From: Oligoflexia bacterium
GTDB lineage: Bacteria; Bdellovibrionota_G; JANQFH01
Assembly (NCBI GenBank): GCA_028277945.1
Contig: JANQFH010000008.1
Coordinates: 195,442-259,441, forward strand
Length of the DNA stretch: 64,000 nt
Direction: 5' to 3'
Every line of letters begins with the position of its first letter. Position 1 is the stretch's first letter. The position numbers and the translations under genes are program-made. Under the pieces are notes generated by a model that had not been told where the DNA came from, did not search any database, and saw only the letters and a program-made list of their open reading frames with translations. This document shows positions 3,907 to 44,740 of this stretch, in pieces.

Positions 3907-5727
3907 TCAAGTTTCTGTTATCGAAATCGGCACATAGCCAACGAGTTCTTTTGGGATGATGCCAACAGAGAGTTTGGCACATCGTTGCTGAAGAGGTTTT
4001 TCTTCATAACGATTGGTCACTAAGATACTCTTTTTGGCAATTCCGAGGCTTTCGATCAGGTCAAGACCGTTCTCTTGCTCTCCAGCAAGTTCATAGTCCA
4101 TGAGAAACAGCGACGACCCATTGTGTTCCAACTGTGAGCAGTCGACTTTAAAACTCTTGGCTGAGCGATAGTGCCGGATGTTCAAGTTCACTCCGTTCAA
4201 CTCCTGCTTAAAACGATAGTCCCATGTTTGGTGTACCGACTGGTCATCGTCAAGAACGATTGCATCCATCCCTTGACTCACCTGCAGGCTAGGTACGAAC
4301 CAGGAGGCCGGGGCGGTTCTCGGCAGCACAAGCGTCACGCAAGTACCCTGGCCAACCTCGGAGTCTATACTGAGATTGCCATTCCACGATTCAAGGGCCT
4401 TACGAGCCTGATAGAGACCAAGGCCCGAGCCTCCTTCTTTGTTATAGGTAAATCCGCGCTCACCGAGTTGGCTGAGCACATCTTTGGGAATGCCTTTACC
4501 ATTATCTCGAATAGTAATCCTGATCTTATCCTTGTCTGGAGGTTTATTATCGTTTTTACTAAGTCCAACTTCTATCAATCCTCCTTTGGGCATTGCCTCA
4601 ACGGCGTTGTTGACAAGGTTGGAGATGACTCGCTTAAAGGTCTTGGGGTCTATCTTGGAGAACAGTCCGTAACAGCTGGGTTCAAAGGTGTCCCGTATCT
4701 GCAAGTCTGTCCTCTCTTTAAACTGCATACGTTTTTCAGAGAGAACGCGACTGACAAGGCTGCTGAGTAGTACAGCCTCTCTTTGGCTGACCTCTGCTTT
4801 CTGGCTATCCATGGTGTCTTCTTTTCTTTTATTTAAATCATTGGCAACATCTCGAATTCTGTCGATAACACTGCGAATCAGCGTGCGTACCTGTTCAGGC
4901 AGATCAACGCAGATGTTGGTTACTGTGTCTAAGGCAGTCAAAGGAGATTGGATATCGTGTGCTACCTGTGTGGCGATCTCTCCCAAGGCCGCGTCCCGCT
5001 CCTTTTTCAAAAGCTCATGTTGCAGCTCGGTGATCTTTTCGCCTACCTCATTGATTGTCTTGTCTATCTCTTTTGATTCAGAGAAGAACAGTGGCGGCAC
5101 AGGTGGCGAGTCATGACGTCTGGCAAGGCCCTTGACGCGACTACGAATCGACAGGATTTCACTCCTAAAAATACGAAACTTTCTATGAGCAATGTAGGAG
5201 GATAGCAACAGTAGCACGGCAAGGGCGACTGTAGTGTAAAAAATAAACTTGTTTTGCAAAGAGCGTAGAAAACGGATGTCAGATACCAAAAATAGCCGCG
5301 CTTGAAGATGTTGTTTCCCGCCAACCATGGTGTGGAAGAAATCAGCCGTTTTATATATGAAGTCTTCGGAGTTTTGGTATTGATCTAGCCTGTTGCTTGA
5401 AAAGAAGCTGCATCCGGTATCGGTGCCGTTGCTGAATGCAAGGCACTGTTGCTCATTATCAAGCAAAAATGCCGCCTTGATATTGCTCAACCCTGAGAGC
5501 GTTTTGAAATACTCCTCTGCAGGCAGGTAGTCTGAATAACTCACCGATTTAGCGATAGCCCAGCGGGTCTGAGCAATAATGACGTCGAACTCCTTGAGGT
5601 AGTTGTCCTTTAGAATCTTCGGCACATAGTAAAAGGCAAGAAAGGCACCAAAGAGCAATAGCACAAGCTGACTACTTAAAATCCCAAGCAGGACTACCGT
5701 TGAAATCGATTGATGGTGCGGTTTCAT
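3907..5727 (-). CDS. hybrid sensor histidine kinase (two TM helices, periplasmic sensor domain, HisKA, HATPase_c, C-terminal receiver)
   Basis: 606-aa ORF; H-box VAHDIQSPLTAL, N-box NLVNNAVEA, G-boxes DNGKGIP and GSGLGL; C-terminal REC-like region (VLDDD ... LFLMDYEL ... ILVTNRY). Paralog of 22314..24110 and 35658..37493. Confidence 0.85.
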   Translation of the reverse strand: MKPHHQSISTVVLLGILSSQLVLLLFGAFLAFYYVPKILKDNYLKEFDVIIAQTRWAIAKSVSYSDYLPAEEYFKTLSGLSNIKAAFLLDNEQQCLAFSNGTDTGCSFFSSNRLDQYQNSEDFIYKTADFFHTMVGGKQHLQARLFLVSDIRFLRSLQNKFIFYTTVALAVLLLLSSYIAHRKFRIFRSEILSIRSRVKGLARRHDSPPVPPLFFSESKEIDKTINEVGEKITELQHELLKKERDAALGEIATQVAHDIQSPLTALDTVTNICVDLPEQVRTLIRSVIDRIRDVANDLNKRKEDTMDSQKAEVSQREAVLLSSLVSRVLSEKRMQFKERTDLQIRDTFEPSCYGLFSKIDPKTFKRVISNLVNNAVEAMPKGGLIEVGLSKNDNKPPDKDKIRITIRDNGKGIPKDVLSQLGERGFTYNKEGGSGLGLYQARKALESWNGNLSIDSEVGQGTCVTLVLPRTAPASWFVPSLQVSQGMDAIVLDDDQSVHQTWDYRFKQELNGVNLNIRHYRSAKSFKVDCSQLEHNGSSLFLMDYELAGEQENGLDLIESLGIAKKSILVTNRYEEKPLQQRCAKLSVGIIPKELVGYVPISITET

Positions 5728-5736
5728 TCTCCAAAC

Positions 5737-6688: not shown

Positions 6689-8248
6689 TCATGGAGTTGC
6701 CGGCAGAGCAGTTCTTGCCAGCCTCATATCCGCGAAATTGATGTTAAACTCCCACTCTGGCATGTGAGATAGATCGATTTTGGAGGAGGCATAAAAGGGT
6801 GTGGCCAGAAAATAGTAGGGAATAACAAAGCCCTCTTCTAGCATATAGCGGCTGATCTCTCTTGCCATTTGGATACGCTCTTTGGTGTTTCCTGTGGACC
6901 TGGTTGCTTCAATCATCTTATAGAGCCTGCCATCGTTAGGATCACGCACATAAAAGTCATCTGGACCAAAGTCTAGACGAAACACCAAACAAGGGTCTCC
7001 TGGTGGTATGGGTATAATACGGGACCCAAGATCAAAGCCTTGTCCCTGCAATCGGGCTTGTTTCATGGAACTACGAGATAGGGGGGTCATCTCAATTTGA
7101 AATCCATACGCTGAGAGATCATTGATTAATAATAGATCTCTCTTTGTTCTCTTATTCCAAACGTCTGGGTACATATATCTCAACGTCAAAGGCTCCTCTC
7201 TCAACCTGGCATAGATTGCTGTAAACTCTTTGGTCGCAGGTAGTGGGGCTTCAATGCGGCCACTAAAGCCGGGGGGAAAGAACTGATCAGAAGGAGCGTA
7301 AAGAAGTGAGTTACCGAATCTCTTGTGTTGGTGCTCTATGAGAGCTGCAGCAAAGGCAAGCCGTAGGGTTTTGTCCTTAAGGGGGCCTGTAATCGCATTG
7401 ACATAAACAATACGGCTCCAGTTACGTTTTGGTATAAACTGCTGAAAACGCTTTACCCTCTCTTGATCCTCTCGTTCTACTAGTCTATTGCGCTTATCTA
7501 AGAAGATGTCTGTTGTGCCTGCTAAAAGACGCTCCACAGCCTCCAAATCGTCACGCTCATAAACAATAACCGTCTGTGCTCTCTCGCCCCGTGGCTCAAA
7601 CCACTGCTCATGCCACTGCAACTTCACATAGTCCTTACGTTTCCACTCCACAAACTTGTAGGGTCCGCCTAACACAGGAAGCTTTTCTTTATGATAAGGC
7701 TCGTTCTCTGGATAGATCTTCCTCGGTACAACACCAGTACCTGGCATGGCTAGAATAAAGAGAAAGTACTCATAGGGGTTCGATAGGTTAAACTCCAAAG
7801 TGTGTTTGTCGATCATACGAATGGCTTTAGAATCTTTCTTTGGATCGACCCAATCAAAGAGCACGTACTCGGGCCAGTTAGTCTGTTTTCTCTTTAAGGA
7901 GAAGATAACATCTTCAACAGTGATAGGTGAGCCATCGTGAAAGAAGGCATCTTTTCTGATGGTGATCTCATAGCGTCTGCCACCATCATAAGAGCGCCAG
8001 CTCTGAGCTAACATGCCTATCAATGATTGGTCTTCGGCAATAGCAAAGAGGGTGATGGAGGTGCTGTTCAACATATACCAACCGCTGTTGGTCATATTTG
8101 CAGCTGGATCAAGAAAAGCTGGAAAATGATCCAGGTCCAACTTGATTGTGGAGCGGTCATCGCTTTGCAGCTGAGGCAGAGAACTGGCAAAACAGACAGC
8201 CGAAAGGAGTCCTAGGATGCCGACGGCTTTAAAAATCAATCTTTTCAA
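6689..8248 (-). CDS. family-5 extracellular solute-binding protein (peptide/nickel-type SBP), orphan
   Basis: 519-aa ORF with TTG start and N-terminal signal peptide; SBP_bac_5-like length and motifs; paralog of 24097..25611, 37483..39021 and 43334..44740; no ABC permease or ATPase gene nearby. Confidence 0.8.
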   Translation of the reverse strand: MKRLIFKAVGILGLLSAVCFASSLPQLQSDDRSTIKLDLDHFPAFLDPAANMTNSGWYMLNSTSITLFAIAEDQSLIGMLAQSWRSYDGGRRYEITIRKDAFFHDGSPITVEDVIFSLKRKQTNWPEYVLFDWVDPKKDSKAIRMIDKHTLEFNLSNPYEYFLFILAMPGTGVVPRKIYPENEPYHKEKLPVLGGPYKFVEWKRKDYVKLQWHEQWFEPRGERAQTVIVYERDDLEAVERLLAGTTDIFLDKRNRLVEREDQERVKRFQQFIPKRNWSRIVYVNAITGPLKDKTLRLAFAAALIEHQHKRFGNSLLYAPSDQFFPPGFSGRIEAPLPATKEFTAIYARLREEPLTLRYMYPDVWNKRTKRDLLLINDLSAYGFQIEMTPLSRSSMKQARLQGQGFDLGSRIIPIPPGDPCLVFRLDFGPDDFYVRDPNDGRLYKMIEATRSTGNTKERIQMAREISRYMLEEGFVIPYYFLATPFYASSKIDLSHMPEWEFNINFADMRLARTALPATP

Positions 8249-11987: not shown

Positions 11988-12392
11988 GCTGGATAAAACG
12001 GGACTTTGATCTAGTCTGACCTAAGGTTTCTGGCCCCATACTTGGAAGAGCCACGGCACACTCATAAGAGTGCGGGTATCCTGAGACAAAGTCTTTAAGG
12101 TTGTAACGATTGCAAGGATACTTCTTCATCGTGATATTTGTCGAACTCAAGCAAAGCCCTGCCTTCGCCCTGTAATCAAAACAAGTTGGTCGTATAGTGA
12201 CCATTTTGTTTCCATAAAAGACAATCAGCATTCTATCCAACGTTAGGATCAAGACAAAGTTAATCACTCCACTCCCTTCGTGAAGGCTAACAACTGATTA
12301 CTCTTCGGCTAATAATGGTCTGGCTTTCTTGGCACACAATTTGCTTTTTTTTAAGCCAGCCACGTCACCTTCAATTTGTTATGGGAGGAACT

Positions 12393-12608: not shown

Positions 12609-13601
12609 ATGTGTTTAGAATATCATTCCGCCCCAGGAAAATTATCACCTTTTGTGCTTCGAAAAAATTTTCAAGGATATTTGGTTAAAAGCGCTATTTC
12701 CTACATTAATGAAGTTCAGTCGTCTTTAAAATTGGACCTCAACCACATAATATTAAAGTTATCCAGCCTAGATCAAAACCAGAAATTTTCCCCCTCTATC
12801 TATACAGGGTATCACATACTACAGTCAGCTTACGATAGTCAGAATAAAACCCTTGTGTTGGATGCCCTTCATTTCTTGGTTCAGTATTGCAATGATAAAG
12901 GTGGTAACAATAACATTGATTATTCAACTATACTTACAGAACCATATGAGAATCATTGTATAGACACTTTTCGAAAATCGAACCCTAAAGATGACTTCGG
13001 CGTGCCAGCTTTTGACGTTGTAGAAATGTTTCCAATACTGAATGTTAAAAAATATAAAATTCCTCCGTCTAGCCTTAAAAAGGCTGAAGAAATATTATCG
13101 CTGATTGATATGGATTTATGGAAAGAGTATCAAGCTTACGTTTCTATCTTAAAGATCTTCCAAGGAAAGAGTCTTCAAGGTGGAACAAGTCTCAACTGTT
13201 TTGGTACGGTATACCTGAGAATGCCTGAGGATTCCGAACATCCGGTACTCTACTTCCTGGAACATATTGTGCATGAAACCTCCCATTTGCATCTCTATGC
13301 ATTAGCCGGAGACAGAGACCTTGTTAGAAACGATTCAGCCTCTGTTTATGACTCGCCAATACGACACGACAAACGGCCCATTATTGGGGTATTTCACGCT
13401 ACGTTTGTTTTGGCTCGCTTAGTCCGTATATTTCAGCGCTACCTAAATCATTTTAGCAATGACTATCCAGAAGGAACTACCTTCTACAACAGAATAAGCA
13501 GAGACTTCAAAACCGGATACTCTATATTGAAAGAAAATTGTCTTTTTACAACGCTTGGGCGACAAATTTTTGATTCGTTAGATGATTGTACGAAAATTTG
13601 A
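12609..13601 (+). CDS. HExxH-motif protein (putative metal-dependent peptide-modifying enzyme)
   Basis: 330-aa ORF with HETSHLH motif and downstream RPIIGVFHATF segment; paralog of 26946..27779 (AHELGHH ... RPLFGIYHAAF); 3' end overlaps the next gene by 20 nt. Confidence 0.55.
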   Translation: MCLEYHSAPGKLSPFVLRKNFQGYLVKSAISYINEVQSSLKLDLNHIILKLSSLDQNQKFSPSIYTGYHILQSAYDSQNKTLVLDALHFLVQYCNDKGGNNNIDYSTILTEPYENHCIDTFRKSNPKDDFGVPAFDVVEMFPILNVKKYKIPPSSLKKAEEILSLIDMDLWKEYQAYVSILKIFQGKSLQGGTSLNCFGTVYLRMPEDSEHPVLYFLEHIVHETSHLHLYALAGDRDLVRNDSASVYDSPIRHDKRPIIGVFHATFVLARLVRIFQRYLNHFSNDYPEGTTFYNRISRDFKTGYSILKENCLFTTLGRQIFDSLDDCTKI

Positions 13602-14607
13602 AAGGAACGACCCTCTTGGAAATACCGCGTTTGGCAAACTACCTATCAAAAAACTGGTACGTGCTGCAGTCTTCCCTGATCGCTTTTTTGTAGGCAAAGC
13701 AGGTATCAAGCTTGTCAATTGGCAAGGAAATAATCAGTACCTTTGTGGCTTCTCATGCAGCAGACAACCGGCTATTGCCGAAAATGTAGCTGTTTTCGAA
13801 CTCTGTGAACGCTTGACAGCAAAGTATGAATTTCAATCTTTTCTGGGCACGAATATGAATACTTTCAGAGCGTTTACCTGGCCCGATGGGAATCCAGCTA
13901 GAGTGACAAAATCTCAATTATTCCTTGGTCCAAATCCATTTTCCCAATTTGGACAAGAGGCAACTGGCCTAGGTTTTGGCCCTGATTATCATCAAGCATT
14001 AAATCACGCTATTCTTGAATTGTTGGAGAGGCACATCTGCGCAGGTCTTTGGTATGAAGCAAAATATAGGCTATGCAAGGCAATCGACAGAGTATCTTTA
14101 GACTCCTTTGACATTTTCTACTATACCCTCCACAGACCGAAGATACCATTTGTTCTAGCCATTATATACTCGAATGAACTTGAGGTGCTTTCAGTCGGCC
14201 ATGCAATAAGATCTACGTTTGAGGAGGCGAAGGAAAAATCCTACTCCGAAGCAGTGATGCTGTTAGATTGTGTTCTCCACAAGGATAACGGTATCTGTAC
14301 CAATTTAAGAACTAAAAATCGTTTGCTTTCTCAAAGAGGTCCCTTAGCAAAAGAACGATTCCAACAATTTAACGATCTGACAGTAAACGTGGCAGCAGCA
14401 AAAAATATCCTAAGCCGATATTTTTCAATATCTGAGATTACTGCGGCGGTGCTTGGCACTAATGACGATATCGAAATTATTCAACTTTTCCGGGATAGAA
14501 ACTTCTGGTCTCTACGAGCACTTTCGAAGAAGGTGGCTACCTTGGCAGAACGTCGACAATCGAATCGATATTCAGAAAAACAAAAGATTCTGGACCCTTA
14601 TTGCTAA
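13582..14607 (+). CDS. short YcaO-like domain protein
   Basis: 341-aa ORF with YcaO signature segments VAVFELCERLTA and TGLGFGPDYHQALNHAILELLERH; overlaps the upstream HExxH gene. Confidence 0.6.
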   Translation: MIVRKFERNDPLGNTAFGKLPIKKLVRAAVFPDRFFVGKAGIKLVNWQGNNQYLCGFSCSRQPAIAENVAVFELCERLTAKYEFQSFLGTNMNTFRAFTWPDGNPARVTKSQLFLGPNPFSQFGQEATGLGFGPDYHQALNHAILELLERHICAGLWYEAKYRLCKAIDRVSLDSFDIFYYTLHRPKIPFVLAIIYSNELEVLSVGHAIRSTFEEAKEKSYSEAVMLLDCVLHKDNGICTNLRTKNRLLSQRGPLAKERFQQFNDLTVNVAAAKNILSRYFSISEITAAVLGTNDDIEIIQLFRDRNFWSLRALSKKVATLAERRQSNRYSEKQKILDPYC

Positions 14608-15888: not shown

Positions 15889-15905
15889 ATACTATCATCA
15901 ACAAG

Positions 15906-16033
15906 GCAAGAATTAGGCCAATAGGAATGTCCGGTATTCCAATGGGTTGTAGATAGGTAACGCTTAGGAACAGTATGTCTGATATAGGACGCTCTGTTCA
16001 CCCTGAAGACAGTTTGTTTGTATTGCGAACAAT
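15906..16033. repeat. conserved ~128-bp operon-leader element, copy 1 (pairs with 28018..28145)
   Basis: About 80 percent nucleotide identity to 28018..28145 by eye; internal dyad symmetry (ACAG..GTCTGATATAGGAC..CTGT) and ACAGTTTGTTTG core; lies 17 bp upstream of the MFS start at 15888. Confidence 0.6.
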
Positions 16034-16149
16034 TGAGCCGTTGCCGGTCTGCCATCATGGAACCTCGCATCTGCCTTCAAGGTAAAGGTATACTCATCTC
16101 CTGCATCAGAGAGCAGCCCATTTTCTTGACCACAAACCAACGAACGCAT
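15964..16149 (-). pseudogene. internal fragment of a family-5 SBP gene (deletion remnant)
   Basis: Translation LLSDAGDEYTFTLKADARFHDGRPATAQ matches residues of the SBP5 paralogs (SDAGDEYTFTLNSDARFHDGSPVTAR in 43334..44740), then runs into the leader repeat; no signal peptide and no remainder of the roughly 500-aa protein. Confidence 0.5.
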
Positions 16150-27922: not shown

Positions 27923-28017
27923 TTTCTAGCTCCTGGTTACAGATGGTTTGTAACTTGTTTGTAATTTTGTCAGTTACACATTATCTGGAATCGATAGCAA
28001 TTAATACCTTTTCAAAA

Positions 28018-28145
28018 GCAAGAGTTAGGCCAATGGGAATATCCAATATTTCAATACGTTGTAAATATATGATACTCGGAGACAGTGTGTCTGATATAAG
28101 ACATTCTGTTCACTATGAAGACAGTTTGTTTGTATTTCGAACAAT
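28018..28145. repeat. conserved ~128-bp operon-leader element, copy 2
   Basis: Paralogous to 15906..16033; contains GTCTGATATAAGAC imperfect palindrome and ACAGTTTGTTTG; lies about 95 bp upstream of the candidate precursor ORF at 27922. Confidence 0.6.
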
Positions 28146-34453: not shown

Positions 34454-35638
34454 ATGAATAAAGAAAAGACGATTAAGAGCTCTCTTTTCAATGGATTTTC
34501 TCTCCAGGCCTTTATCTCCTCCACTCCAAGCATTGTGACGGTTGCGATTATTCCATTTATCGTTAAACACCTCGGTTTAGCATATATATGGATCGGAGTT
34601 ATTTTTTTTCTATTACGAGTGGGTCTAATAAGCGGTCGGTTTATCGGTCCGTTCTTTCTAAAATGGCTAAAACCACATTACCTCTGTGCTATTTTTGAGC
34701 TAAAGAATTTTTTCTTGATTACCATTATCTGGTTTTATTTCGACAGGATACCTTCTTCCCTCTTTGCTATTCTTTGGCTGCTAAAAGGAATCATCATTGG
34801 AGCCATATCAACCCTGGTATTTTCTTGGCTGCGTCATCTATCCGACGTCAGTAAGACCAAGCGAACGTTAATTACGGTTATGGCTATTATACAGTCTAGC
34901 TATGGTGTAGCAGGAGTTATCATTCTTACTACAACTCCTGATATAAATCTTATCAAGAATATCTTGTTAATTGATGCGCTGTCATCCTGTGTAGGACTAG
35001 TTACATTTTTGAATCTTAGGCGTTTTCGGGCTAAGGACACAGGTCGTGGAAACGCATTCTCCATATTTAAATTTCCATTTCTCAATAGAGAACGCGTCAT
35101 TCTTCTTATTGTGGATATTTTGGTAGCGGCAGGTCTTGGCGGTGCAAATATTCTACTAGTGAAGTATGGTGAAATGTACTTTTCTACCATAGGCGGATAT
35201 GGCACGACGCTTGTCGTATATGCGATAGCTTTTCTAATCGTTGGCTTTCTATTTAATATAGAACAGTCAGATACAGATCTCATTATTCGTAGACTGACGA
35301 TGCTTTGCGTGCCTCTAATGTGGGCAGGGTTGGTTGTTTTGGCTATCGCATCAGATAAGTCTTTGTTAGGTATTGCTGGATTTTCACTAGTCTATTTAAA
35401 CTTACCTATTTTCTTTTTAAGAATACAGGCGAAATGGTTCACGTTAAGTACCCCTGAAGAAGCGGCTAAGATATTCGCTTACAGAAGTTTACTTGTAGAT
35501 GTTGTTAGTGCTGTCGGTGAAGTGGTCTACGGTAGTATTAAAGAAGATATTCTGATAAGAATTACTCTCTTAACTCTTGCTATTATTCTTGGAATTGCTT
35601 TCCGAAATATGATCTTTCCTCACACACAACAATCATGA
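34454..35638 (+). CDS. polytopic membrane transporter (MFS-like)
   Basis: 394-aa ORF with about 12 hydrophobic segments; convergent with the histidine kinase at 35658..37493. Confidence 0.5.
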   Translation: MNKEKTIKSSLFNGFSLQAFISSTPSIVTVAIIPFIVKHLGLAYIWIGVIFFLLRVGLISGRFIGPFFLKWLKPHYLCAIFELKNFFLITIIWFYFDRIPSSLFAILWLLKGIIIGAISTLVFSWLRHLSDVSKTKRTLITVMAIIQSSYGVAGVIILTTTPDINLIKNILLIDALSSCVGLVTFLNLRRFRAKDTGRGNAFSIFKFPFLNRERVILLIVDILVAAGLGGANILLVKYGEMYFSTIGGYGTTLVVYAIAFLIVGFLFNIEQSDTDLIIRRLTMLCVPLMWAGLVVLAIASDKSLLGIAGFSLVYLNLPIFFLRIQAKWFTLSTPEEAAKIFAYRSLLVDVVSAVGEVVYGSIKEDILIRITLLTLAIILGIAFRNMIFPHTQQS

Positions 35639-35657: not shown

Positions 35658-37493
35658 CTAGGCACTATATCTCGCCAGTGATGATTGATTGTTCAATTCG
35701 GGCATTACTAGTAGCGGCACAGTATTCGCCAGCATTTTAGGTAGTAATTTCACTTTCCACTTAGTACATAATTCTTGAATTTCCATTTCTTCAAAGCGAG
35801 AAGTTACAAGTATTGATTGTTGCTCCAGCCTGTATTCCTTGATCAAATCCAATCCGGTTTTTTTACTTCCTAGCAATTCATAGTCAAAAAGATAAATTGA
35901 TGGTCCCTGTTCTTTATGTTGTGCTAGATAGCTTGATGCATCGGTATAATTAGACAAATCAACTTGATTAATGGAATGTAGATATTTCAGCGGGCCAAGC
36001 CGGTTTGTCCACACGTGGTGGATAAATATATCGTCGTCAAGTACTACAAAGTCACTATTTGGCTTTATATGAATTTTTGGAACATACCAATTTGGTGGAG
36101 GAGCCTTGGGAACTATCATCTTCACATTCGTTCCCATGTTTTGCCGTGAGTCTATTGTTAGTTCTCCATGCCAACGTCCTAAGGAGCTCTTCGCATAGTA
36201 TAAGCCTAGTCCTAATCCATGTTTCTTGTTAGCAGTCACACCTCTCTCTGTCGCTTTTTTAAGCAGTTCCTCTGACATGCCGCATCCATTATCCGAGACT
36301 TCAATACAAAAATTGTCTCCGGAACAATTGCATAGTCGTATACTAACTTCACCATTATTTGGAATAGCTTCCACGGCGTTATTAATAAGGTTCGAGAGAA
36401 TTCTTTTGAACTCGACAATCTCGACCTTCGCAAAGATACTATAGGCTTCTTCCGTAAAAACTGTATTAATCTTTATATCCTTACGTCCTGAAAACTGAAT
36501 CCTCTTTTCGGACACAAGAGTTTCTATAAGCACGGCGATCTGCTGAGTACTTACACGTTCGAAGTGAGTGTTGTCTAAATGGCGGGCATCCTGATCTGAG
36601 TAATAGGTATTGTCATTCCAAAGTAGCTGACGATGCTTTTCTACTAAGCTATTAGCAATATCCTGAATACGTGTGGCCGCTTGTCGCAAAAGAACACGTT
36701 GTTCTTCAGGGATATCACTAGAAGACTTGCCCAACATCTGCAAAGCAGTCAACGGTGATCTGATATCATGGGCCACTCTTGAGGCAATCTCGCCCATTGC
36801 GGCCTTCTTTGTTGCTCGTACTAGAACAGCTTGGGCTGTTTCTAATTCTTTTACCAATTTTCGAGTATTTTTGTATAATTCATTAATCTCCTTTATGTTT
36901 GAAAATCGTACTTCTTGAGAATTCTCAAATAGAGACCTTAGTCCATGTTGCGAAAGTCGTCTAGATAGATGCACTATCGGCCAAGTAATTTTTTTTCCTA
37001 TAACCCCTCCTATCCAGACGAATATAATAAATAGGGAAACAAGGGCTATTACGAGCACTACTAACGCTCGATAAACAGATCGTGATAATAGTTGTTGTGA
37101 AAAAACAATCTGGATCGTTGCTGCCATTTCTTTGCTAGTTTGATCAAAGTAGACATGAGAGGTAATAACTTCAGTTGAGGAGATTCCCTCACGTTTGGTG
37201 GTACTGCAGATTGAAAAATTTTGACTGTCAACAACACTTATACCCAAAATTGACCGGTCACGTAAAAGTATTTTACATTTTCTGTAGACTTCCGCATGGG
37301 CTCCTATAAGAAGACTGTGGCTTATGTCCTCGGTAAAGATGTTTACGATAGATTGGAACTTTGCTTGAAGCTCCTCCTCTGCACTCTTCTTTATCAAGTA
37401 GAGTGCCAATGCCCCACTAAGTACGACAGTTGCCGCCGTTATGACGGCTGAGGGAACGAACATAGCCCTGCCTAATGTCCACCTAAATCTCAT
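35658..37493 (-). CDS. hybrid sensor histidine kinase with C-terminal receiver domain
   Basis: Paralog of the other two kinases; H-box VAHDIRSPLTAL, N-box NLINNAVEA, G-box DNGCGM, REC-like VVLDDD ... LFDYEL; start taken at ATG 37493 (track TTG start at 37532 is the alternative). Confidence 0.85.
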   Translation of the reverse strand: MRFRWTLGRAMFVPSAVITAATVVLSGALALYLIKKSAEEELQAKFQSIVNIFTEDISHSLLIGAHAEVYRKCKILLRDRSILGISVVDSQNFSICSTTKREGISSTEVITSHVYFDQTSKEMAATIQIVFSQQLLSRSVYRALVVLVIALVSLFIIFVWIGGVIGKKITWPIVHLSRRLSQHGLRSLFENSQEVRFSNIKEINELYKNTRKLVKELETAQAVLVRATKKAAMGEIASRVAHDIRSPLTALQMLGKSSSDIPEEQRVLLRQAATRIQDIANSLVEKHRQLLWNDNTYYSDQDARHLDNTHFERVSTQQIAVLIETLVSEKRIQFSGRKDIKINTVFTEEAYSIFAKVEIVEFKRILSNLINNAVEAIPNNGEVSIRLCNCSGDNFCIEVSDNGCGMSEELLKKATERGVTANKKHGLGLGLYYAKSSLGRWHGELTIDSRQNMGTNVKMIVPKAPPPNWYVPKIHIKPNSDFVVLDDDIFIHHVWTNRLGPLKYLHSINQVDLSNYTDASSYLAQHKEQGPSIYLFDYELLGSKKTGLDLIKEYRLEQQSILVTSRFEEMEIQELCTKWKVKLLPKMLANTVPLLVMPELNNQSSLARYSA

Positions 37494-39021
37494 TGTCTTT
37501 AGCCCACTGTAGTCGGTAGAGAGGAAAGTCAAATTGGTAGCGTTTTTCCGGGACTTTAATATGTTTGTGGTAAATTACCGGAGTATAAAGATGAAATAAT
37601 GGAACGATAAATGACTTTTCCTCAAACTCAATCATTAGATCAGTGTATTTTTCTAATCTCCGTATACGGTCAGATATGAAACTGATTTCATCAGCACCCT
37701 TTAAAAGCTTCGTTGTGGGGAAATTGCCAAATTGGATTGGATTTTTGGCTCGAAACAAGTCTAGGAAGCCATCTGGGTCTGGTATGACTCCAAAATAACC
37801 TACCATAATCAAATCGTAATCTTTGCTTTTTAGAAGAGGTATAACCTCTTCAATATTTTTGAACTCTATAATCGGGATCATACCTACGTTGGTCAACACT
37901 TCACTGATAGCCTTACCTACAGGTATGTTTAAATATTCTTTCCTCAAAACTATTCTAAGCTTTTTATGTTTTACTTTATTTTTCCAGAGCTTTTTGAAAC
38001 TGATCGGACTCATACGGCGAAAGTCACGTTCGTAGTATCTTCTTAGAAGAACGCCATGTGGTAAAAAATGCTTCTGATGGTCTATAAAGAAACCGGGTTT
38101 CTCTATCTGGGAAACTCGAGTTTTTATTAGCGCCGCAATATCTCTTCTAAAACTTTCATTACTTAGTGCTGGATTGTCAGTGTTTGTATATAGATGTAGG
38201 ATGCCCAGTCCTCCTAGACGGAGTAACTGATAATTATTTGGTAGTGTTCCCGGTTGTAATCCTGGATCAGCAAAGCCTAATGCGAAGTCAATCGAGTCAT
38301 TCCGTAATTGTGATAGTAGTTGATTTGCGCTTTCTACCCGTCGAAACGAAAGCCTGGATATATGGCTATCATTGGGAACGAACGGAACCATCTGCAGACG
38401 ATTTGGCAGTTGTACTGAGTCCAGAGAAAAAGAGCCAGACCCCACTACCTGAGAAGAACTACCAGAGGACTTTTTAGTTACACCGTAACCAGGTACTGCT
38501 AACAATTCTAACAGATACGGATACGGACGCTTGAGGCTTAGAATAATCGTGTGCTGATTCGGAGTGATAATTCCCGATGGTATTTGTCCATCTTTCAGGT
38601 TTTCGGCACCTACCACGATACGACCTAGATAGCTGGATATTTGCGTCATACTACCTTGCCATAAATGGCGTGACAGACTAAAGGCGATATCTTTACTCGT
38701 AATGAGCGCACCATCATGGAACCGAGCATGACGATCCAGATGAAAGCTATAACGTCTTCCATCTGAAGATATCTTCCAGCGCCTTGCAAGATCAGCTGTA
38801 ATACGATTTTCTTTGTCTAACTTTACTAGAGTGCGTAAGTATGGTCTAAGAAGGTCAGAATGTACGTAATGCCACGCATCTATTGGATCCAGAGAGCTGG
38901 GCAAAATAGGCAACGCTATCTCAAAGCTGTTGGTTGTCTTACGGTACTTCTGTTTAGATGATGCTGCATAAGTATGAAAGACAAATGAAAATAAAAGAAA
39001 GTGCAACAGGCACGCCTTCAT
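37483..39021 (-). CDS. family-5 extracellular solute-binding protein, orphan
   Basis: SBP5 paralog; start taken at ATG 39021 (MKACLLHFLLFSFVFHTYAASS signal peptide; GTG at 39042 is the alternative); stop overlaps the kinase start. Confidence 0.8.
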   Translation of the reverse strand: MKACLLHFLLFSFVFHTYAASSKQKYRKTTNSFEIALPILPSSLDPIDAWHYVHSDLLRPYLRTLVKLDKENRITADLARRWKISSDGRRYSFHLDRHARFHDGALITSKDIAFSLSRHLWQGSMTQISSYLGRIVVGAENLKDGQIPSGIITPNQHTIILSLKRPYPYLLELLAVPGYGVTKKSSGSSSQVVGSGSFSLDSVQLPNRLQMVPFVPNDSHISRLSFRRVESANQLLSQLRNDSIDFALGFADPGLQPGTLPNNYQLLRLGGLGILHLYTNTDNPALSNESFRRDIAALIKTRVSQIEKPGFFIDHQKHFLPHGVLLRRYYERDFRRMSPISFKKLWKNKVKHKKLRIVLRKEYLNIPVGKAISEVLTNVGMIPIIEFKNIEEVIPLLKSKDYDLIMVGYFGVIPDPDGFLDLFRAKNPIQFGNFPTTKLLKGADEISFISDRIRRLEKYTDLMIEFEEKSFIVPLFHLYTPVIYHKHIKVPEKRYQFDFPLYRLQWAKDNEI

Positions 39022-39038
39022 CAAAATGTGAATGAGTT

Positions 39039-40130
39039 TCACTGCGTACTCCGGTCACAGTAGATCTCAATATCATTCTGTTTTATCAGTATATGTTTTT
39101 GTGTATACGTTACTTCTACGCCTTTATGGTGTGCTTTGTAATCATATCTATAATGACCATCGAAATATCGGCATATTTGTAACGGCCCTGATTTTTTTAG
39201 TAGGTCTGTCACCCCCAATTGTAGAGGATTTTTATTTCCCGAACGTGATGACGAGGCCATCTCCTGAAACGGATGCAATTTTGAATCAATTCGCTTAGGT
39301 ACATTAGGATGAGCGTAATAAAATATTTCTCTGTCACCGCACTTCCTAAAGTAATAGGGAATGTCACCTCGTTCTAATTGTTCTAGCTCACTAGGTAGAA
39401 ATTCGTTCCCGTTTAAATTATTCGCCTTCTTTGTCAAGAAGGAATGATAATCTCTTGTAGACCGAGGAATGACCCGAATCGGATTTTGCATGAATCCATC
39501 AATGGAAGCAAAAAGATTCGCTGTGAGTTCTGTTACTGATGAGAGAAAGTTCAATGCGTCAAAAAAACCAAAGCAAATTGCAGCAACGCCACTGTGGGAT
39601 CTATCCAACTCTCGAAAGTTATTTAATAGGTGGGAGAGTCCTGAATCTTCAAATGTCAATGCAGGGGAAGGTATGAGTGCTGTTTCAGAGAGAAGTGTGT
39701 GATCTTCAAAGATACATTCTATATCGATAGGGCTGAATATGATACTGCCAGCAGAAGTCTTGCCAAGCAATACATTGGCACGGTGCAGATCTCCAATTCC
39801 GAACCAAGTAATAAGTGCGATGGTACGGCCAATATCTTCTAATACTTCTAAATCTAGATCTTTGGAAATGAGAGGTTTAAGTAGGAGTTCCTCTACTCTG
39901 CCAAAACATTTTTCACCAGGAGATGACATTTCGACATATAGTTTTGGTAAAGATCTTCCTGGGTATACAAATCCCCTTTTCTTAGCTTCAGATTCTAATA
40001 AAGATGTTAAGGGACTTAATCGAGATAAGAAGAGGTATTCCCAAAATACAGTTCTAGGCTTGCAAATCCTTTGGGTACCATCACGACAAACTCGCTGTCC
40101 AAAATTGTGAGGGTCGCCTAACGGTTGCAT
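39039..40130 (-). CDS. hypothetical protein, possible kinase-like phosphotransferase fold
   Basis: 363-aa ORF with GGGAGG before the ATG; segment GIGDLHRANVLL resembles catalytic loops of aminoglycoside/protein-kinase-like phosphotransferases; occupies the modifying-enzyme slot of the cassette. Confidence 0.35.
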   Translation of the reverse strand: MQPLGDPHNFGQRVCRDGTQRICKPRTVFWEYLFLSRLSPLTSLLESEAKKRGFVYPGRSLPKLYVEMSSPGEKCFGRVEELLLKPLISKDLDLEVLEDIGRTIALITWFGIGDLHRANVLLGKTSAGSIIFSPIDIECIFEDHTLLSETALIPSPALTFEDSGLSHLLNNFRELDRSHSGVAAICFGFFDALNFLSSVTELTANLFASIDGFMQNPIRVIPRSTRDYHSFLTKKANNLNGNEFLPSELEQLERGDIPYYFRKCGDREIFYYAHPNVPKRIDSKLHPFQEMASSSRSGNKNPLQLGVTDLLKKSGPLQICRYFDGHYRYDYKAHHKGVEVTYTQKHILIKQNDIEIYCDRSTQ

Positions 40131-40144
40131 ATGCCTCCCATCAG

Positions 40145-40258
40145 TCTATGCGGGTAGAGAAAGGGGAGGCTTACCTAGATCCCTACAGTCACGCCACGTA
40201 TTACGACAATCTTCTCCAATTTATCTAAATCTATGTATTCTCGTCTTCTTTTTTTCAT
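40145..40258 (-). CDS. candidate precursor peptide (37 aa): MKKRRREYIDLDKLEKIVVNTWRDCRDLGKPPLSLPA
   Basis: Below the ORF-track cutoff; ATG preceded by AGGAG at 6-nt spacing; stop lies 14 bp upstream of the 39039..40130 gene. Confidence 0.35.
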
Positions 40259-41000: not shown

Positions 41001-41116
41001 AGTGTGTTGAACTTGAAATAGGTCTGCTACCTAAGCGAATGCTTTCCTACATTCCTATTGAAGTAGTTGGGCATAAATTACGTTAGTGGTTTTAACAAAT
41101 ACTAGTTAAGGTCTTG

Positions 41117-42331
41117 ATGTTTAGATTCTATTTCAACTCTTTTCGAGGTTTACCCAGGGCGGGAGTGTTGCTTTCATTGGCTGCATTGATAAACCGTCTT
41201 GGAAGTGTGGTGTTGTTTTTCTTTGCGATCTATTTAACGAAAAATAATTGGAGCGTATTTGATATTGGGAAGGTTCTATCAGCCTATAGTTTTGGCTATG
41301 CAGGTGGGGCTTATCTTGGTGGTCGTCTTAGTGATCGTTATGATAGCCGTTTTATACTTATAATTACACTAATGGGTTCTGGCTTATGTTTCTTCGGACT
41401 TTCTATAGCGGATTCTTTTACACCTGTTATTCTTTTACTTTCTATGGCTGGCATTTTGGAAGGTGCCTTTAAACCAGCATACAATGTTACAATGACCCGA
41501 TGTTGTACCCAGGACGAGTGGTCACGTGCTTATGCACTGTATATGACCACGACTTATTTAGGAGGAGCTATAGCTTCAATGGCAGGTGGATTTTTGTCCA
41601 AATGGAACTTTAGCTACATTTTTTATTTTGATGGTGTAACGTGTATCATTGCAGCGGTTTTTGTGTGTATTGTTTTCGATCGGCTAACCCGTTCAGTGGA
41701 AGCAGAGAAAGAGCAAATCACCGATGAGTTCAGTCTATCTAAAAATACACCTCCATCTTCTCTAGTTATTTGGATAATTTTTGTATCCATGTTTTTTGTC
41801 TATCTTGTTGATCAACAGGAGTCTGGAAGCTATATGATTCATATTACAAAACAGTATGGTATTGATACTCACCAGGTAGGTATGTTGATTGCTTTTGGCT
41901 GTGTACTTATGGCACTGACCACTGTACCTTTGACTCAGTTTTTCAAACGCATTCCGGATTTTATCGCGATGACTTTAGGATCTTTGATTCTTTGCCTGTC
42001 CTTTGGTCTTTTGAATCAGGGTGATAGTTTTGCCTTTCTTTTCTTGTTGATGGCTATGTGGTCCTTGGGCAGCATCATATCATTTCCGACCGTAGTGAGC
42101 CTCATTGGTAAGTACTCAACAAAGGAAAGGGTTGGACATAACATGGGAATTTACCATTTCATCTCTGGCTTAAGCAGAATCGTCGCGCCCTCTCTTGGTA
42201 CCTATGTCTATCAAAACTTGGGTCCGAATATCTTGTGGAGTGCTTGCACTGCTATTGGTGTTTTCAGTGGTGTATCCTTCCTTCTCATTTATCGTTTTAG
42301 TTTAAGGTCAATTCACTCCAGAGAAGCATGA
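41117..42331 (+). CDS. MFS-type transporter
   Basis: About 404-aa polytopic membrane protein, motif-A-like loop GGRLSDRYDSR; ATG at 41117 (track start is TTG at 41114). Confidence 0.7.
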   Translation: MFRFYFNSFRGLPRAGVLLSLAALINRLGSVVLFFFAIYLTKNNWSVFDIGKVLSAYSFGYAGGAYLGGRLSDRYDSRFILIITLMGSGLCFFGLSIADSFTPVILLLSMAGILEGAFKPAYNVTMTRCCTQDEWSRAYALYMTTTYLGGAIASMAGGFLSKWNFSYIFYFDGVTCIIAAVFVCIVFDRLTRSVEAEKEQITDEFSLSKNTPPSSLVIWIIFVSMFFVYLVDQQESGSYMIHITKQYGIDTHQVGMLIAFGCVLMALTTVPLTQFFKRIPDFIAMTLGSLILCLSFGLLNQGDSFAFLFLLMAMWSLGSIISFPTVVSLIGKYSTKERVGHNMGIYHFISGLSRIVAPSLGTYVYQNLGPNILWSACTAIGVFSGVSFLLIYRFSLRSIHSREA

Positions 42332-43131
42332 AACTGATCGAAAGAGATGTAGCTTTAATCAACCATGAATATTACATCGATGGAATTGCTGGCAGTCAGT
42401 ATACATCGAGACAGGTGTTTACGTGCCGAGGTAAACTATTTGTTGTGATTGATGAATTGTGTGTCGATAAGTTACATGATATAGCGGTTAACTACGTTGG
42501 CCAATATAGTACTAAGAGTATAGTGTGTCTTTGCTCACATTTACGTGTTAGACAAATTAGTGAAATGTGGGAAAAGACAAGTTCAAAATTCTATTCGTGG
42601 TTTGGTTTTACGTTTGATCCGGCATTGTCCCGGTTCGACTTTGCTTACTCGAAAAGTGCACTAGAGGGATTCGACGTATCGGTCGGTATGCCAATTAGTA
42701 AGGTTGAAAAGGAAACACTGTTAAAATTGTGGCAAAAACACTATATTGAAAAGGTTCTCCTAGGTTATCCGGAGAAAATAAGGCATCGTTATCTTGAAGA
42801 ATTTCAACAAAGATTGGGTTCTGATAATGAAAATCGGCATACCATAGTTCGGCAGGATAGTGAGATTGTGGCCCATCAGATGCTACGAAGACTTTTTACG
42901 GAGCAAAGAAACTGTTGGGATAAAGAGTTGCACTTTTGGGTCGATGGACAGCTGAATAAGTCGATTCGACGAGAAATTCATCGACGGTTTTGGTATGAAG
43001 TACATGAGGCATCGAGAAAACATATGGTGCTTGGTGGTGTTGCGAGTAATAATATATCGAGTATCAAACATCTCATTAAAAATGGTGGCCGATTACTTTT
43101 TATTCAATACATAGGGTTATCGTCTTACTAG
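42328..43131 (+). CDS. hypothetical protein (cassette enzyme slot)
   Basis: 267-aa ORF whose start overlaps the MFS stop by 4 nt; no recognised motif. Confidence 0.4.
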   Translation: MKLIERDVALINHEYYIDGIAGSQYTSRQVFTCRGKLFVVIDELCVDKLHDIAVNYVGQYSTKSIVCLCSHLRVRQISEMWEKTSSKFYSWFGFTFDPALSRFDFAYSKSALEGFDVSVGMPISKVEKETLLKLWQKHYIEKVLLGYPEKIRHRYLEEFQQRLGSDNENRHTIVRQDSEIVAHQMLRRLFTEQRNCWDKELHFWVDGQLNKSIRREIHRRFWYEVHEASRKHMVLGGVASNNISSIKHLIKNGGRLLFIQYIGLSSY

Positions 43132-43253: not shown

Positions 43254-43343
43254 TAACCTTGACGGATTTAAGCGATCAGGGTAAGCATTTATAATTAGAC
43301 GAGATTATAAATGAGCTTAGAAAGGGAAGCGCAATGCGGAGTT
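43254..43343. repeat. duplicated promoter/5'-leader element, copy 1 (pairs with 47260..47352)
   Basis: AACCTTGACGGATTTAA ... ATTATAAAT.AGCTT.GAAAGG.AA..GCAATGCGGAGTT shared with 47260..47352, including a TTGACG -35-like box, a purine-rich RBS and the ATG CGG AGT start. Confidence 0.6.
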
Positions 43344-44740
43344 CAAAAATTGGTATGACAAACGTTCCAAGTGACCTTGATCCATTGAAGGCACGATATG
43401 CTTACGACCTGATGATGAACGCATGCGTTTTTTCGCGACTTGTACAGCTTGATGGTAATGGTCAGGTGGTGTCAGAGCTTGCGTCCAGTTGGAAGGTTAG
43501 TGATGCAGGAGATGAGTATACCTTTACCTTGAATTCGGACGCGAGATTTCATGATGGGTCACCAGTAACAGCTCGAGATGTTGTCTATACCTTCGAAAGG
43601 ATCTTGAAGTCAGATCGGCCACCTGCTTCGATTCTTCGTCTAGCATTAGATCCTTCCTTTCGTTCGGATGAGGATTGTCCGGTAAAGGCAGTGAACGATC
43701 GTCAGGTCAAATTTCATTTACCTGGTGCGTACCCGCCATTTCTGTCTCTGCTTTGTAATCCTGTTTTTGGAATAGTTGCTCAGGATAGTGATGGTAAGAT
43801 TGGCTCTGGTCCAATGGTGCTGGAGGCTGACGAGCATAGTAAGACATTGAAGTTTAAACCCTTCCAGGAAGGCGCCGGTCTCGGCGAGTTTTATGTAAAG
43901 CAGATCTCCCGTGACAGCTTACCGGAAGTTATTGCCGAAGATGAACTAGATCTGATTTTTGGGCTCAATTCAATAGATTTTCAGAACGTAATCCGCATAG
44001 ACCCATACAAGGTCGTCAGAGGCCATGATTCGTTTGTCGCTCACTTTTTATGCAATACCAAAAGTCCAGTACTAGATTCTTTAGAGAGGCGACGTAATCT
44101 AAGCTATTTGATCAATTCGCTTTCAGATGAAGTGAGCAATTTAGCAGAATATCAAAAACCGCTGAAAAGTTTTCTACCAAGTGGGTTGTTGTCGCCATCT
44201 TATTACCAGAGAGCAACATCGCCTGTATCCGAGGATGCCTTTAGTGCAAAAAACAGCCAATTCAAAGCCCAACCGCTGCGTATCGTGGTTCAGAAAGGTA
44301 TTTTTTCTCAGAGTTATATGAGTGCGCTAGGTTCTCTAATAGAAAGGCTAGGTATGGTACCTGATATTCAACTAGTGGATTCAGACGCATTATGGAACCG
44401 CTATGCAAAGGATGATTATGATCTTATATCTTTTAGTTACAGTTTGGCGATTCCCGACGATCCAGATGGCTACCTATGGCCCTTCGACAATAAGGAGCTC
44501 GGCATTGATAATCGGTTTCCTATGAGCTCTTTTCTTCAGAAGATTGAAAAGGTCCGTTTTACGTCGAACCAGAAAGAGAGACTCGAGCTCTATGAACGTG
44601 AGTTCAAGCAGTTTGAACAGGAACATTACTTTATTCCAGTGCTTCAACATGACCATCTTATTGCTTTTAAAAACCGGAGCGAAATACCGACTTTAAAGCC
44701 TACATTCCTTTATCGATTGTCTGATTTTATCAGACCTTAG
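43334..44740 (+). CDS. family-5 solute-binding protein lacking a signal peptide (N-terminally truncated paralog)
   Basis: 468-aa ORF aligning to the other SBP5 paralogs from about residue 40 onward (SKIGMTNVPSDLDPLK vs LKIGVSILPQTLDPMK); begins MRSSKIG with no hydrophobic leader. Confidence 0.65.
   Translation: MRSSKIGMTNVPSDLDPLKARYAYDLMMNACVFSRLVQLDGNGQVVSELASSWKVSDAGDEYTFTLNSDARFHDGSPVTARDVVYTFERILKSDRPPASILRLALDPSFRSDEDCPVKAVNDRQVKFHLPGAYPPFLSLLCNPVFGIVAQDSDGKIGSGPMVLEADEHSKTLKFKPFQEGAGLGEFYVKQISRDSLPEVIAEDELDLIFGLNSIDFQNVIRIDPYKVVRGHDSFVAHFLCNTKSPVLDSLERRRNLSYLINSLSDEVSNLAEYQKPLKSFLPSGLLSPSYYQRATSPVSEDAFSAKNSQFKAQPLRIVVQKGIFSQSYMSALGSLIERLGMVPDIQLVDSDALWNRYAKDDYDLISFSYSLAIPDDPDGYLWPFDNKELGIDNRFPMSSFLQKIEKVRFTSNQKERLELYEREFKQFEQEHYFIPVLQHDHLIAFKNRSEIPTLKPTFLYRLSDFIRP

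Follow-up and report, generated by a model that had tools for sequence, protein, structure and literature searches.

Tightly packed cassettes of family-5 solute-binding proteins, hybrid sensor kinases and putative peptide-modifying enzymes in an Oligoflexia genome: candidates for a modular peptide-sensing operon family

The 64-kb stretch of DNA analysed here, referred to below as the window, comes from an Oligoflexia bacterium (assembly GCA_028277945.1, contig JANQFH010000008.1, positions 195,442 to 259,441). It carries five gene cassettes, A to E, which combine in varying sets a solute-binding protein (SBP) of the SBP_bac_5 family (SBP5), a sensor histidine kinase, putative peptide-modifying enzymes, polytopic membrane transporters, some of them related to the major facilitator superfamily (MFS), and short open reading frames (ORFs) that resemble peptide precursors (Table 1). 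Domains were assigned with Pfam and NCBIfam/TIGR profiles and with PDB sequence profiles. The genes of a cassette are tightly packed, with junctions ranging from gaps of 44 nt down to overlaps of 4–50 nt, and their reading frames are all intact.

Table 1. Genes, promoter sequences and a gene relic of cassettes A to E in the window (aa, residues; TM, transmembrane segments; scores are given against the profile cut-off)
Cassette	Feature	Position	Strand	Evidence
A	SBP_bac_5 protein with Sec signal peptide	6689..8248	-	PF00496, E 1.8e-35; N-terminal hydrophobic signal
A	Compact YcaO, 312 aa	5737..6675	-	PF02624 58.3 bits vs 25.7; two ExxER; C-terminal HPIS
A	Hybrid sensor histidine kinase, 606 aa	3907..5727	-	2 TM, periplasmic loop, HisKA/HATPase core, receiver fold
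B	Perfect sigma-54 consensus TGGCACACAATTTGC	12330..12344	+	49 nt before precursor B start codon; the window's only zero-mismatch site
B	Candidate precursor peptide MKDAKKTKRQQSKSSKKIFSPIKDKLLDTAMSTITYDVTG, 40 codons	12393..12515	+	GGGAGGA Shine-Dalgarno 5 nt before ATG
B	aKG-HExxH-type peptide beta-hydroxylase	12609..13601	+	TIGR04267 66.4 bits vs 40; HETSH at residue 222
B	Compact YcaO, 341 aa, subfamily other than that of A	13582..14607	+	PF02624 37.2 bits vs 25.7; two ExxER
B	11-TM transporter, weakly MFS-like, convergent with B enzymes	14620..15888	-	MFS_1 24.1 bits, under cut-off
B	Regulatory segment upstream of the transporter, ending in sigma-54-like site TGGCCTAATTCTTGC	15903..16033	-	131 nt, 80% identical to 28015-28145
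	SBP gene relic, reads SDAGDEYTFTLKADARFHDG	16035..16108	-	74 nt, 84% identical to E SBP codons; inverted repeat with 43501-43574
C	Hybrid sensor histidine kinase	22314..24110	-	HATPase_c, 2 TM, HDIRSP H-box, receiver fold; 14-nt overlap with SBP gene
C	SBP_bac_5 protein, 504 aa as called	24097..25611	-	PF00496, E 1.9e-31; ORF extends to 25701
C	Polytopic transporter, weakly MFS-like	25617..26933	-	MFS_1 29.2 bits, under cut-off; TM profile
C	aKG-HExxH-type peptide beta-hydroxylase	26946..27779	-	TIGR04267 43.6 bits vs 40; HELGH at residue 161
C	Candidate precursor peptide MAKSNESKKTVSFNFSFQSHRVLGAKLASIPTGS	27818..27922	-	AGGAG 9 nt before ATG; ORF end 38 nt ahead of enzyme gene
C	Promoter region, sigma-54-like site TGGCCTAACTCTTGC at 28018-28032	28015..28145	-	96 nt upstream of precursor C
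D	10-12-TM membrane protein, putative exporter, convergent downstream of D	34454..35638	+	32%-identical ortholog in Elusimicrobia cassette L002
D	Hybrid sensor histidine kinase	35658..37532	-	HATPase_c, 2 TM, HDIRSP H-box
D	SBP_bac_5 protein with signal peptide	37483..39042	-	Pfam; 4-nt overlap with enzyme gene
D	Stand-alone DUF4135 (LanM dehydratase/kinase-like) enzyme, 363 aa	39039..40130	-	PF13575 39.7 bits vs 29
D	Candidate precursor peptide MKKRRREYIDLDKLEKIVVIRGVTVGI	40175..40258	-	AGGAG 7 nt before ATG; [IL]DLxx[LV]E motif
E	MFS transporter, divergent from D operon	41114..42331	+	MFS_1 192 bits
E	267-aa protein, no family match	42328..43131	+	Pfam, NCBIfam and PDB sequences all without match
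E	SBP_bac_5 paralog of the C SBP (42% identical), without signal peptide	43334..44740	+	Pfam

A first-pass annotation, made from the letters of the sequence, had described these cassettes as five mosaic copies of one unit, each of which would make, export and sense a modified peptide. Only C and D are complete, and it is their gene sets that fit this description, while A, B and E fit it in part. Nor are the five copies of one another in any close sense: the kinases are 34–37% identical, the SBPs 26–42% and the HExxH proteins 28%, and the two YcaO proteins cannot be aligned by BLAST. With paralogs just 26–42% identical, recent duplication of a cassette was rejected, and the low identity makes the cassettes parallel members of one design. 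The word “mosaic” is apt at the DNA level, where promoter segments are shared and relics of genes are found. Degeneration may explain the partial gene sets of A, B and E, or these cassettes may share parts; the MFS gene of E, for example, is divergent from D, and the sensor of A lies 4 kb from the factory of B.

SBP_bac_5 was matched by four window proteins at E values of 1e-31 to 1e-36 (109–124 bits against a Pfam cut-off of 32.4), which bears out the four SBP5 genes of the first-pass annotation. The C protein likely starts at an internal Met at 25611, which would yield a signal peptide, and the E protein, as had been noticed, has none in any frame. The claim that the SBP genes lack an ABC partner also holds, since no ABC permease or ATPase family was found among the scanned window proteins (most ORFs of at least 100 residues). 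These proteins have the fold of family-5 ABC substrate-binding proteins and do not have the permease and ATPase at the same locus that go with that functional class. Their best NCBIfam matches are the transporter SBPs SapA, NikA, OppA and CntA, all far under cut-off. The SBP genes were further said to abut or overlap the kinase genes, which is true of C and D, where the genes overlap, but not of A, where the YcaO gene intervenes with gaps of 13 and 9 nt. A search for SBP homologs, run under a strict E-value limit and with a shared-word pre-filter of candidates, returned the query alone.

In the window kinases, two TM segments enclose a loop of about 110–120 residues; HATPase_c and a further, C-terminal domain some 125 residues long follow. 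HATPase_c scored 69–92 bits in the three kinases, the H-box HDIRSP is invariant, and HisKA reached 20.6–25.4 bits, just under its cut-off of 26.9, so that the H-box/DHp and HATPase_c core of a hybrid histidine kinase is present. Comparison of the paralogs showed the predicted contrast between conserved cores and divergent N-terminal parts. The label “hybrid” fared differently at the levels of sequence and fold. Sequence profiles are silent: the C-terminal domain has no Pfam (Response_reg) match and no match among PDB sequence profiles. However, its AlphaFold (AF2) model, made from a 16-sequence alignment, has a predicted local distance difference test score (pLDDT) of 94.5 and a (beta-alpha)5 topology, and nearly all of its top 50 Foldseek matches are receiver domains, such as those of RcsB, Spo0A and PhoP. 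The DDD/D/T/K positions of the domain are invariant. Because of this receiver-like model and these invariant residues, the kinases are hybrid at the level of the predicted fold, with a fused receiver. Kinase homologs of around 710 residues bear a second receiver domain. The periplasmic loop of the subgroup formed by the C and D kinases was modelled as a single PDC-like domain (pLDDT 84). The PDB matches of this model are weak, the best being 4u64, a LapD ortholog's periplasmic domain to which a protein docks, with CitA and KinD next.

Three kinds of enzyme are encoded in the cassettes. The two YcaO-like proteins, of A and B, score above the PF02624 cut-off and carry two ExxER motifs each, as members of the YcaO superfamily do. 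They fall short of the SagD profile of thiazole/oxazole-modified microcin (TOMM) cyclodehydratases (TIGR03604, cut-off 219), with 45.2 bits for A and 19.9 bits for B, and profile searches found no E1-like, TfuA or nitroreductase partner genes in the cassettes. The two HExxH enzymes, of B and C, match TIGR04267 (IPR026337) above its cut-off of 40 and contain the HExxH motif, which places them among the peptide beta-hydroxylases. Enzymes of the aKG-HExxH type have been established experimentally as modifiers of ribosomal peptides (PMC12636437). The enzyme of D, left as unknown in the first-pass annotation, matches DUF4135, the dehydratase domain of LanM, at 39.7 bits against 29, with the match confined to the C-terminal third of the domain (residues 182–260). 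It is not a class II LanM (TIGR03897, cut-off 304): it scores 27 bits there, is 363 residues long and has no LanC domain. The first-pass annotation had staked its reading on the YcaO and SBP5 assignments, and both families score above their Pfam cut-offs. A NCBIfam search with ten unannotated window proteins gave no match.

The short precursor-like ORFs of B, C and D, which had also been pointed out, each have a GGAGG/AGGAG Shine-Dalgarno sequence 5–9 nt ahead of their ATG, and they end 38–93 nt ahead of an enzyme gene. How far such ORFs are conserved differs between the types. For D, precursors from five loci in two phyla share the motif [IL]DLxx[LV]E, followed by 11–13 residues that contain Thr/Ser: EYIDLDKLE-KIVVIRGVTVGI in the window and, at homologous loci designated by L numbers, WIDLSDVE-AGSDVLFTTDTM (L002), SLDLRNLE-EELKSSINQTY (L008), EIDLRLLE-NDLKKSIHDTGGF (L060) and TIDLKKLE-LESKGPATITSG (L027). 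A small ORF with this motif lies upstream of all five DUF4135-type enzymes. Judged by its sequences, the D type has the make-up of a cluster for a peptide that is made by ribosomes and modified after translation (RiPP), with a short ORF and an enzyme, a putative conserved leader and a putative variable core. The same assignment is plausible for B from one homologous locus, L090, where a 48-residue ORF with an LLDLEE element occupies the position of precursor B beside a 37%-identical homolog of the B HExxH enzyme; it is the single good example. For C, no homologs were found.

A secreted, Cys-rich protein of 168 residues with an acidic helical middle is encoded at 8459–8965 (+), divergent from cassette A. 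By analogy with the signal-bearing ORFs of 100–130 residues that lead homologous operons, it might be the missing precursor of A. A metallophore role for the peptides was also considered and is unlikely, as the core peptides of the window have no Cys/His-rich metal-binding motifs.

All the transporters had been called MFS exporters. That of E clearly is an MFS protein (192 bits against a cut-off of 33.4), whereas those of B and C stay below the cut-off (24.1 and 29.2 bits) and that of D has no MFS match. For D, neither Pfam nor PDB nor hhalign supported such an assignment, and the hhalign comparison with the other three gave a probability of 0.7%. Precursors B, C and D are without signal peptides. 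Small ORFs with Sec-type signals lead the operons at L008, L028, L036, L042, L049, L056, L060, L069, L078, L082, L085 and L086. Such signals are reported to be highly unusual for precursors of ribosomally made modified peptides and are known from the bufferins, which are modified by MNIO enzymes (PMC12452194). In a comparison that rests on heuristics, a polytopic transporter was present in 6/6 evaluable cassettes with a non-Sec precursor and in 3/12 with a Sec-signal precursor.

Several of the units are preceded by sigma-54-like promoter sequences (Table 1). The 131-nt segment found ahead of both the C operon and the B transporter gene has TGGCCTAAYTCTTGC at its end, with the GG and GC intact, and this sharing suggests from the DNA that the two units are co-regulated. 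Sigma-54 activators are encoded beside some homologous loci, and together with the promoter-like sites they suggest a sigma-54-dependent output. A scan of 22–41 kb for sigma-70 promoters and terminators gave counts equal to those of shuffled controls, and Rfam and tRNA scans gave no matches. The SBP gene relic in Table 1 adjoins the B transporter's copy of the 131-nt segment. Positions 40895–40969, between D and E, repeat 75 nt from the 3' end of orf484, and the 5' region of the E SBP gene is duplicated upstream of orf122 (47260–47355). These three relics look like traces of cassette shuffling.

The kinase of C has hundreds of homologs, whose source names include Elusimicrobia, Bdellovibrionota, Bdellovibrio and Oligoflexia, and a scan of species-representative genomes gave at least 537 relatives of the family. 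Oligoflexia/Bdellovibrionota, with the isolate Fluviispira multicolorata among them, and Elusimicrobia account for most of the best 80 of these at least 537 loci; a few are labelled Legionellales, Tatlockia or Nitrospirae, and one bin is labelled Streptomyces griseus. Up to 10 kinase loci of this set of 80 occur in one genome. Co-directional upstream genes were found at 56 of 83 kinase genes and encode 133 proteins in 82 similarity clusters. By Pfam, SBP_bac_5 is represented by 26 of the 133, followed by YcaO and Radical_SAM (8 each, four of the latter resembling the peptide epimerase YydG), methyltransferases and alpha/beta hydrolases (6 each), Peripla_BP_6 (4), DUF4135 and MFS (3 each) and ABC_sub_bind (2).

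The gene combination is conserved in related genomes, far outside this stretch of DNA. Iterative hidden Markov model (HMM) searches found an SBP5-like gene in the operon of 29 of the 63 kinases with at least 2.5 kb of upstream sequence, directly adjacent in 18 and separated by one gene in 10. The gene in between often encodes a YcaO of about 320 residues, which is exactly the arrangement of cassette A. The junctions in 20 adjacent SBP–kinase pairs, as called, lie between −38 and +17 nt, and the genes overlap or abut in 20/20. Most SBP-linked kinases (27 of 29) have two TM segments and a loop of 88–148 residues, whereas the other 34, without an SBP link, have 0–11 TM segments and loops of 4–365 residues.

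The order small ORF, enzyme or enzymes, SBP, kinase recurs at L002/L003, L004, L007, L008 and L009. The layouts include DUF4135-like, SBP5 and kinase in both Elusimicrobia and Bdellovibrio; a 40-residue ORF, B12-radical SAM, M19 peptidase, SBP5 and kinase in Bdellovibrionota; a small ORF, MFS, SBP5, methyltransferase and kinase with an adjoining sigma-54 activator in Elusimicrobia; and small ORFs, TldD/PmbA, radical SAM, a 479-residue protein and kinase. Cassette D shares orthologs of its transporter, enzyme, SBP and kinase, 29–34% identical, with the Elusimicrobia locus L002, together with the peptide motif. Orthologs of the D enzyme lie upstream of SBP–kinase pairs at L002, L008, L027 and L060, and the A YcaO has ten homologs in SBP–YcaO–kinase operons elsewhere. 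For the B YcaO, the HExxH proteins and the 267-residue E protein, no homologs were found in the 80 fetched loci. The best matches of the SBPs track the type of enzyme across phyla rather than the taxon, and those of the D SBP are the SBPs of other DUF4135-type cassettes. Downstream of the kinase homologs are nine response regulators, six of which are sigma-54 activators.

The position of the SBP is not always filled by a recognisable SBP5. At L009, L015, L028, L048, L083 and L084, a family of about 470 residues without a Pfam match takes this place after radical SAM genes. Encoded directly upstream of the kinase and linked to SBP5 by the iterative HMM, it is probably a very divergent clade of binding proteins. 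Binding proteins of the Peripla_BP_6 or ABC_sub_bind families are partners of this kinase family too (L037 and three similar loci; L029, L062), which indicates that the kinase scaffold accepts several binding-protein families.

In our estimate the window probably, though far from certainly, contains several members of a modular operon family whose self-made modified peptides are sensed through an SBP–kinase co-receptor. Operon coupling, the uniform loop and the co-variation of SBP and enzyme are indirect pointers to a binding-protein co-receptor of the LuxPQ/TorTS type. In such a circuit, the genes of a cassette would be co-transcribed, and a short ribosomal precursor, consisting of a leader and a core of about 12 residues, would be modified in the cytoplasm. 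The enzymes for this step appear to be interchangeable: aKG-HExxH hydroxylase, compact YcaO or stand-alone LanM-like DUF4135 here, radical SAM enzymes and methyltransferases elsewhere. The product would leave through the polytopic transporter of the cassette, or through Sec in relatives with Sec-signal precursors, and would be captured in the periplasm by the cassette's own family-5 SBP. The liganded SBP would then dock on the small PDC-like loop and switch the hybrid kinase, either activating or inhibiting it. The phosphoryl group would pass through the receiver domain to components outside the window, an Hpt protein and a sigma-54-dependent activator being the probable ones, and this activator would feed back on the sigma-54 promoters ahead of the precursor operons. 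Such a circuit would form a loop of the autocrine or quorum type, and one genome would run several orthogonal channels.

A number of observations weigh against this circuit. Complete cassettes are 2/5: the precursor and exporter of A are not visible, with only unconvincing ORFs upstream of its SBP gene, B is missing its sensor, and E has neither a precursor nor a recognised enzyme nor a kinase. For precursors B and C there are hardly any homologs on which to test conservation, and the B HExxH protein has four relatives. Both the D-type motif and the correlation between transporter and Sec signal were found post hoc. The resemblance of the window SBPs to OppA, NikA and PrgZ among PDB sequences is distant, so that their specificity for peptides is tentative, and the kinase loop has a weak fold match, at E 3.6e-3. 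An SBP5 gene is missing from the operons of about half the kinase homologs, and the overlaps between genes are exaggerated by our own simple gene calling, which takes the most upstream start codon. On the output side, the 64-kb window has neither an Hpt protein nor a DNA-binding response regulator, and only about 10% of the homologous loci have an adjacent response regulator. The sigma-54 sites before C are imperfect and that before D is degenerate, with its GG broken. Ahead of the 41 homologous operons scanned, 3 sites within one mismatch were observed against 0.56 expected, a modest excess.

The SBPs could instead be uptake receptors, like PrgZ or MbnE, that pass an exported or metal-loaded peptide to a distant Opp/Dpp-type permease, with the kinases independent of them or sensing something else. 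One of the distant PDB relatives is PrgZ, an OppA homolog that binds a pheromone, the best NCBIfam matches are transporter SBPs, if far under cut-off, and the SBP of E is present without a kinase. A parallel exists in the OppA-related MbnE, which is encoded in the methanobactin cluster and whose inner-membrane importer is not yet identified (PMC7558416). Yet an uptake role is unlikely given the overlapping or abutting genes in every one of the adjacent SBP–kinase pairs and the small periplasmic loop that is uniform in SBP-linked kinases, unlike in unlinked ones. Permease and ATPase families are not enriched in the roughly 280 genes that neighbor about 80 homologous kinases, being absent from the 25 commonest families up- or downstream; the kinase family also pairs with two further binding-protein families, and the core peptides of the window show none of the Cys/His-rich motifs expected of metal carriers.

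It is also rather unlikely that the SBP–kinase pair senses an external cue, such as prey, cell-wall or other-strain peptides, and switches on the operon for an effector, for example a bacteriocin or a predation factor. SBP similarity tracks enzyme and precursor type across phyla and not taxon or habitat, the enzyme, SBP and kinase genes appear to be translationally coupled in one operon, and the divergent SBP–kinase pairs that stand beside different enzyme sets in one genome fit private ligands better than common nutrients. What speaks for such a cue is that many of the host lineages are predatory or host-associated, that unmodified oligopeptides or murein peptides are common ligands of SBP5 proteins, that the kinase family pairs with non-peptide binding-protein families too, and that cassette A is a sensor without a visible precursor. 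Far less probable still is a meaningless juxtaposition, in which a recombination-prone island has gathered SBP pseudo-transport genes, orphan kinases and enzyme genes that are unrelated to each other and the short ORFs arose by chance. The DNA relics and duplicated promoter pieces do attest to frequent rearrangement, the G+C content of the cassettes is lower than that of the flanks (about 40% against about 50%), A, B and E are incomplete, and toxin-antitoxin-like genes are scattered through the region. This explanation is contradicted by synteny, with the same gene order in two phyla and orthologs 29–34% identical, as well as by the Shine-Dalgarno sites of the short ORFs, the fixed spacing of the D-type motif and the intact reading frames.

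The toxin-antitoxin-like genes between the cassettes encode HicA with a helix-turn-helix partner, Fic, a RES-domain protein and HipA (3147–3773, 9717–10907, 19139–20923 and 50651–51907). The region 46395–50011, with a secreted 122-residue ORF (47380–47748), an MFS transporter (47976–49151) and a methyltransferase (49214–50011), is possibly a sixth, partial unit. Near it is a divergent operon for a secreted 167-residue protein and a 484-residue protein, with AGGCACGATTCTTGC in front, a sigma-54-like site at 46958–46972. A type IV pilin-like gene, followed by a CHASE2-adenylate/guanylate cyclase gene (region 28476–31196), has another sigma-54-like site 146 nt ahead of it, TGGTACACTAGTTGC at 28316–28330. 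Finally, two 54-nt direct repeats, 85% identical and 82 nt apart (55946–56081), sit at and just inside the 3' end of a 522-residue gene (55970–57538, −), beside its junction with a neighboring unannotated gene.

If the window does contain self-sensing peptide operons, their distribution raises a broader proposal, which we put forward as a tentative possibility rather than an expectation. The operons could belong to a widespread, unrecognised class of peptide pheromones in double-membrane bacteria (Bdellovibrionota/Oligoflexia and Elusimicrobiota), with a private modified peptide, family-5 SBP and hybrid kinase per channel and as many as ten or more orthogonal channels in one genome, which would share a common kinase core and receiver and converge on a shared Hpt protein and sigma-54 activator. 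To our knowledge, the sensing of peptide pheromones by histidine kinases is regarded as a Gram-positive trait, and the Bdellovibrionota and Elusimicrobiota lineages are thought to be without peptide quorum sensing; the signals known from double-membrane bacteria are mainly small molecules. If true, the proposal would change the Gram-positive-only picture of kinase-sensed peptide pheromones, provide a peptide counterpart of the LuxN/LuxPQ/CqsS network of Vibrio and equip predatory and uncultured groundwater lineages with a peptide “language” of their own. Binding-protein-dependent kinases would gain a new class of ligand, and genome searches would have a simple rule, namely to look upstream of this kinase family for bioactive modified peptides and their natural receptors. 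The swappable enzyme sets, which include the compact YcaO and the LanM-like domain, would then amount to a natural experiment in the co-diversification of signal and receptor.

Literature searches turned up no account of this gene combination, which the first-pass annotation had not recognised as a described system either, but parts of the design are familiar. In LuxP–LuxQ and TorT–TorS, as here, a periplasmic binding protein is encoded beside a hybrid kinase with a C-terminal receiver and has no ABC partner. There the binding protein is the ligand-binding half of the receptor. In Vibrio, several kinases that act in parallel feed into an Hpt protein and the sigma-54 activator LuxO, a convergence that we only infer for the present system. 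These systems differ in that their binding proteins are of the Peripla_BP_4 and similar families rather than SBP_bac_5, and in that the ligand is a small molecule whose synthase is encoded outside the operon. The sensor of LuxQ is a tandem PAS of about 250 residues, compared with the single PDC-like loop of about 110 residues here. SBP–kinase pairs have been reviewed, and the only pair of an SBP_bac_5 protein and a sensor kinase in that review is CBP–ChiS, which serves chitin sensing in Vibrio (PMC8050422). Unlike the SBPs described here, CBP is encoded in an ABC transporter operon, the ligand is a chitin oligosaccharide and peptide biosynthesis genes are absent; the PDB sequence relatives found for the window SBPs also do not include CBP.

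Dedicated peptide-binding proteins of the OppA family that are encoded without a permease of their own are known from PrgZ/TraC and MbnE, and the MbnE gene lies within a cluster whose product is a modified peptide of ribosomal origin (PMC7558416). Their role is in import, however, and no sensor kinase is coupled to them. The bufferins and oxazolins share with the related loci their small precursors with N-terminal Sec-type signals, but they depend on MNIO/DUF692 instead of YcaO or DUF4135-like enzymes, they serve copper buffering, and the three precursors of the window have no such signal. Agr (AgrBDCA), ComQXPA and NisRK/SpaRK resemble the cassettes in combining a precursor, modifying or export machinery and a histidine kinase at one locus. 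In Agr, ComQXPA and lantibiotic autoinduction the kinase senses the mature peptide, which results in positive feedback. Those systems are Gram-positive, however: their peptide is bound directly by the polytopic membrane domain of the kinase without a binding protein, their operons encode a cognate DNA-binding response regulator, and their enzymes are of other families. The design of the cassettes thus works like LuxPQ and TorTS on the one hand and like the Agr, nisin and ComX loops on the other, but it belongs to neither group, being set apart by its binding-protein family, sensor domain, enzyme sets and host phyla.

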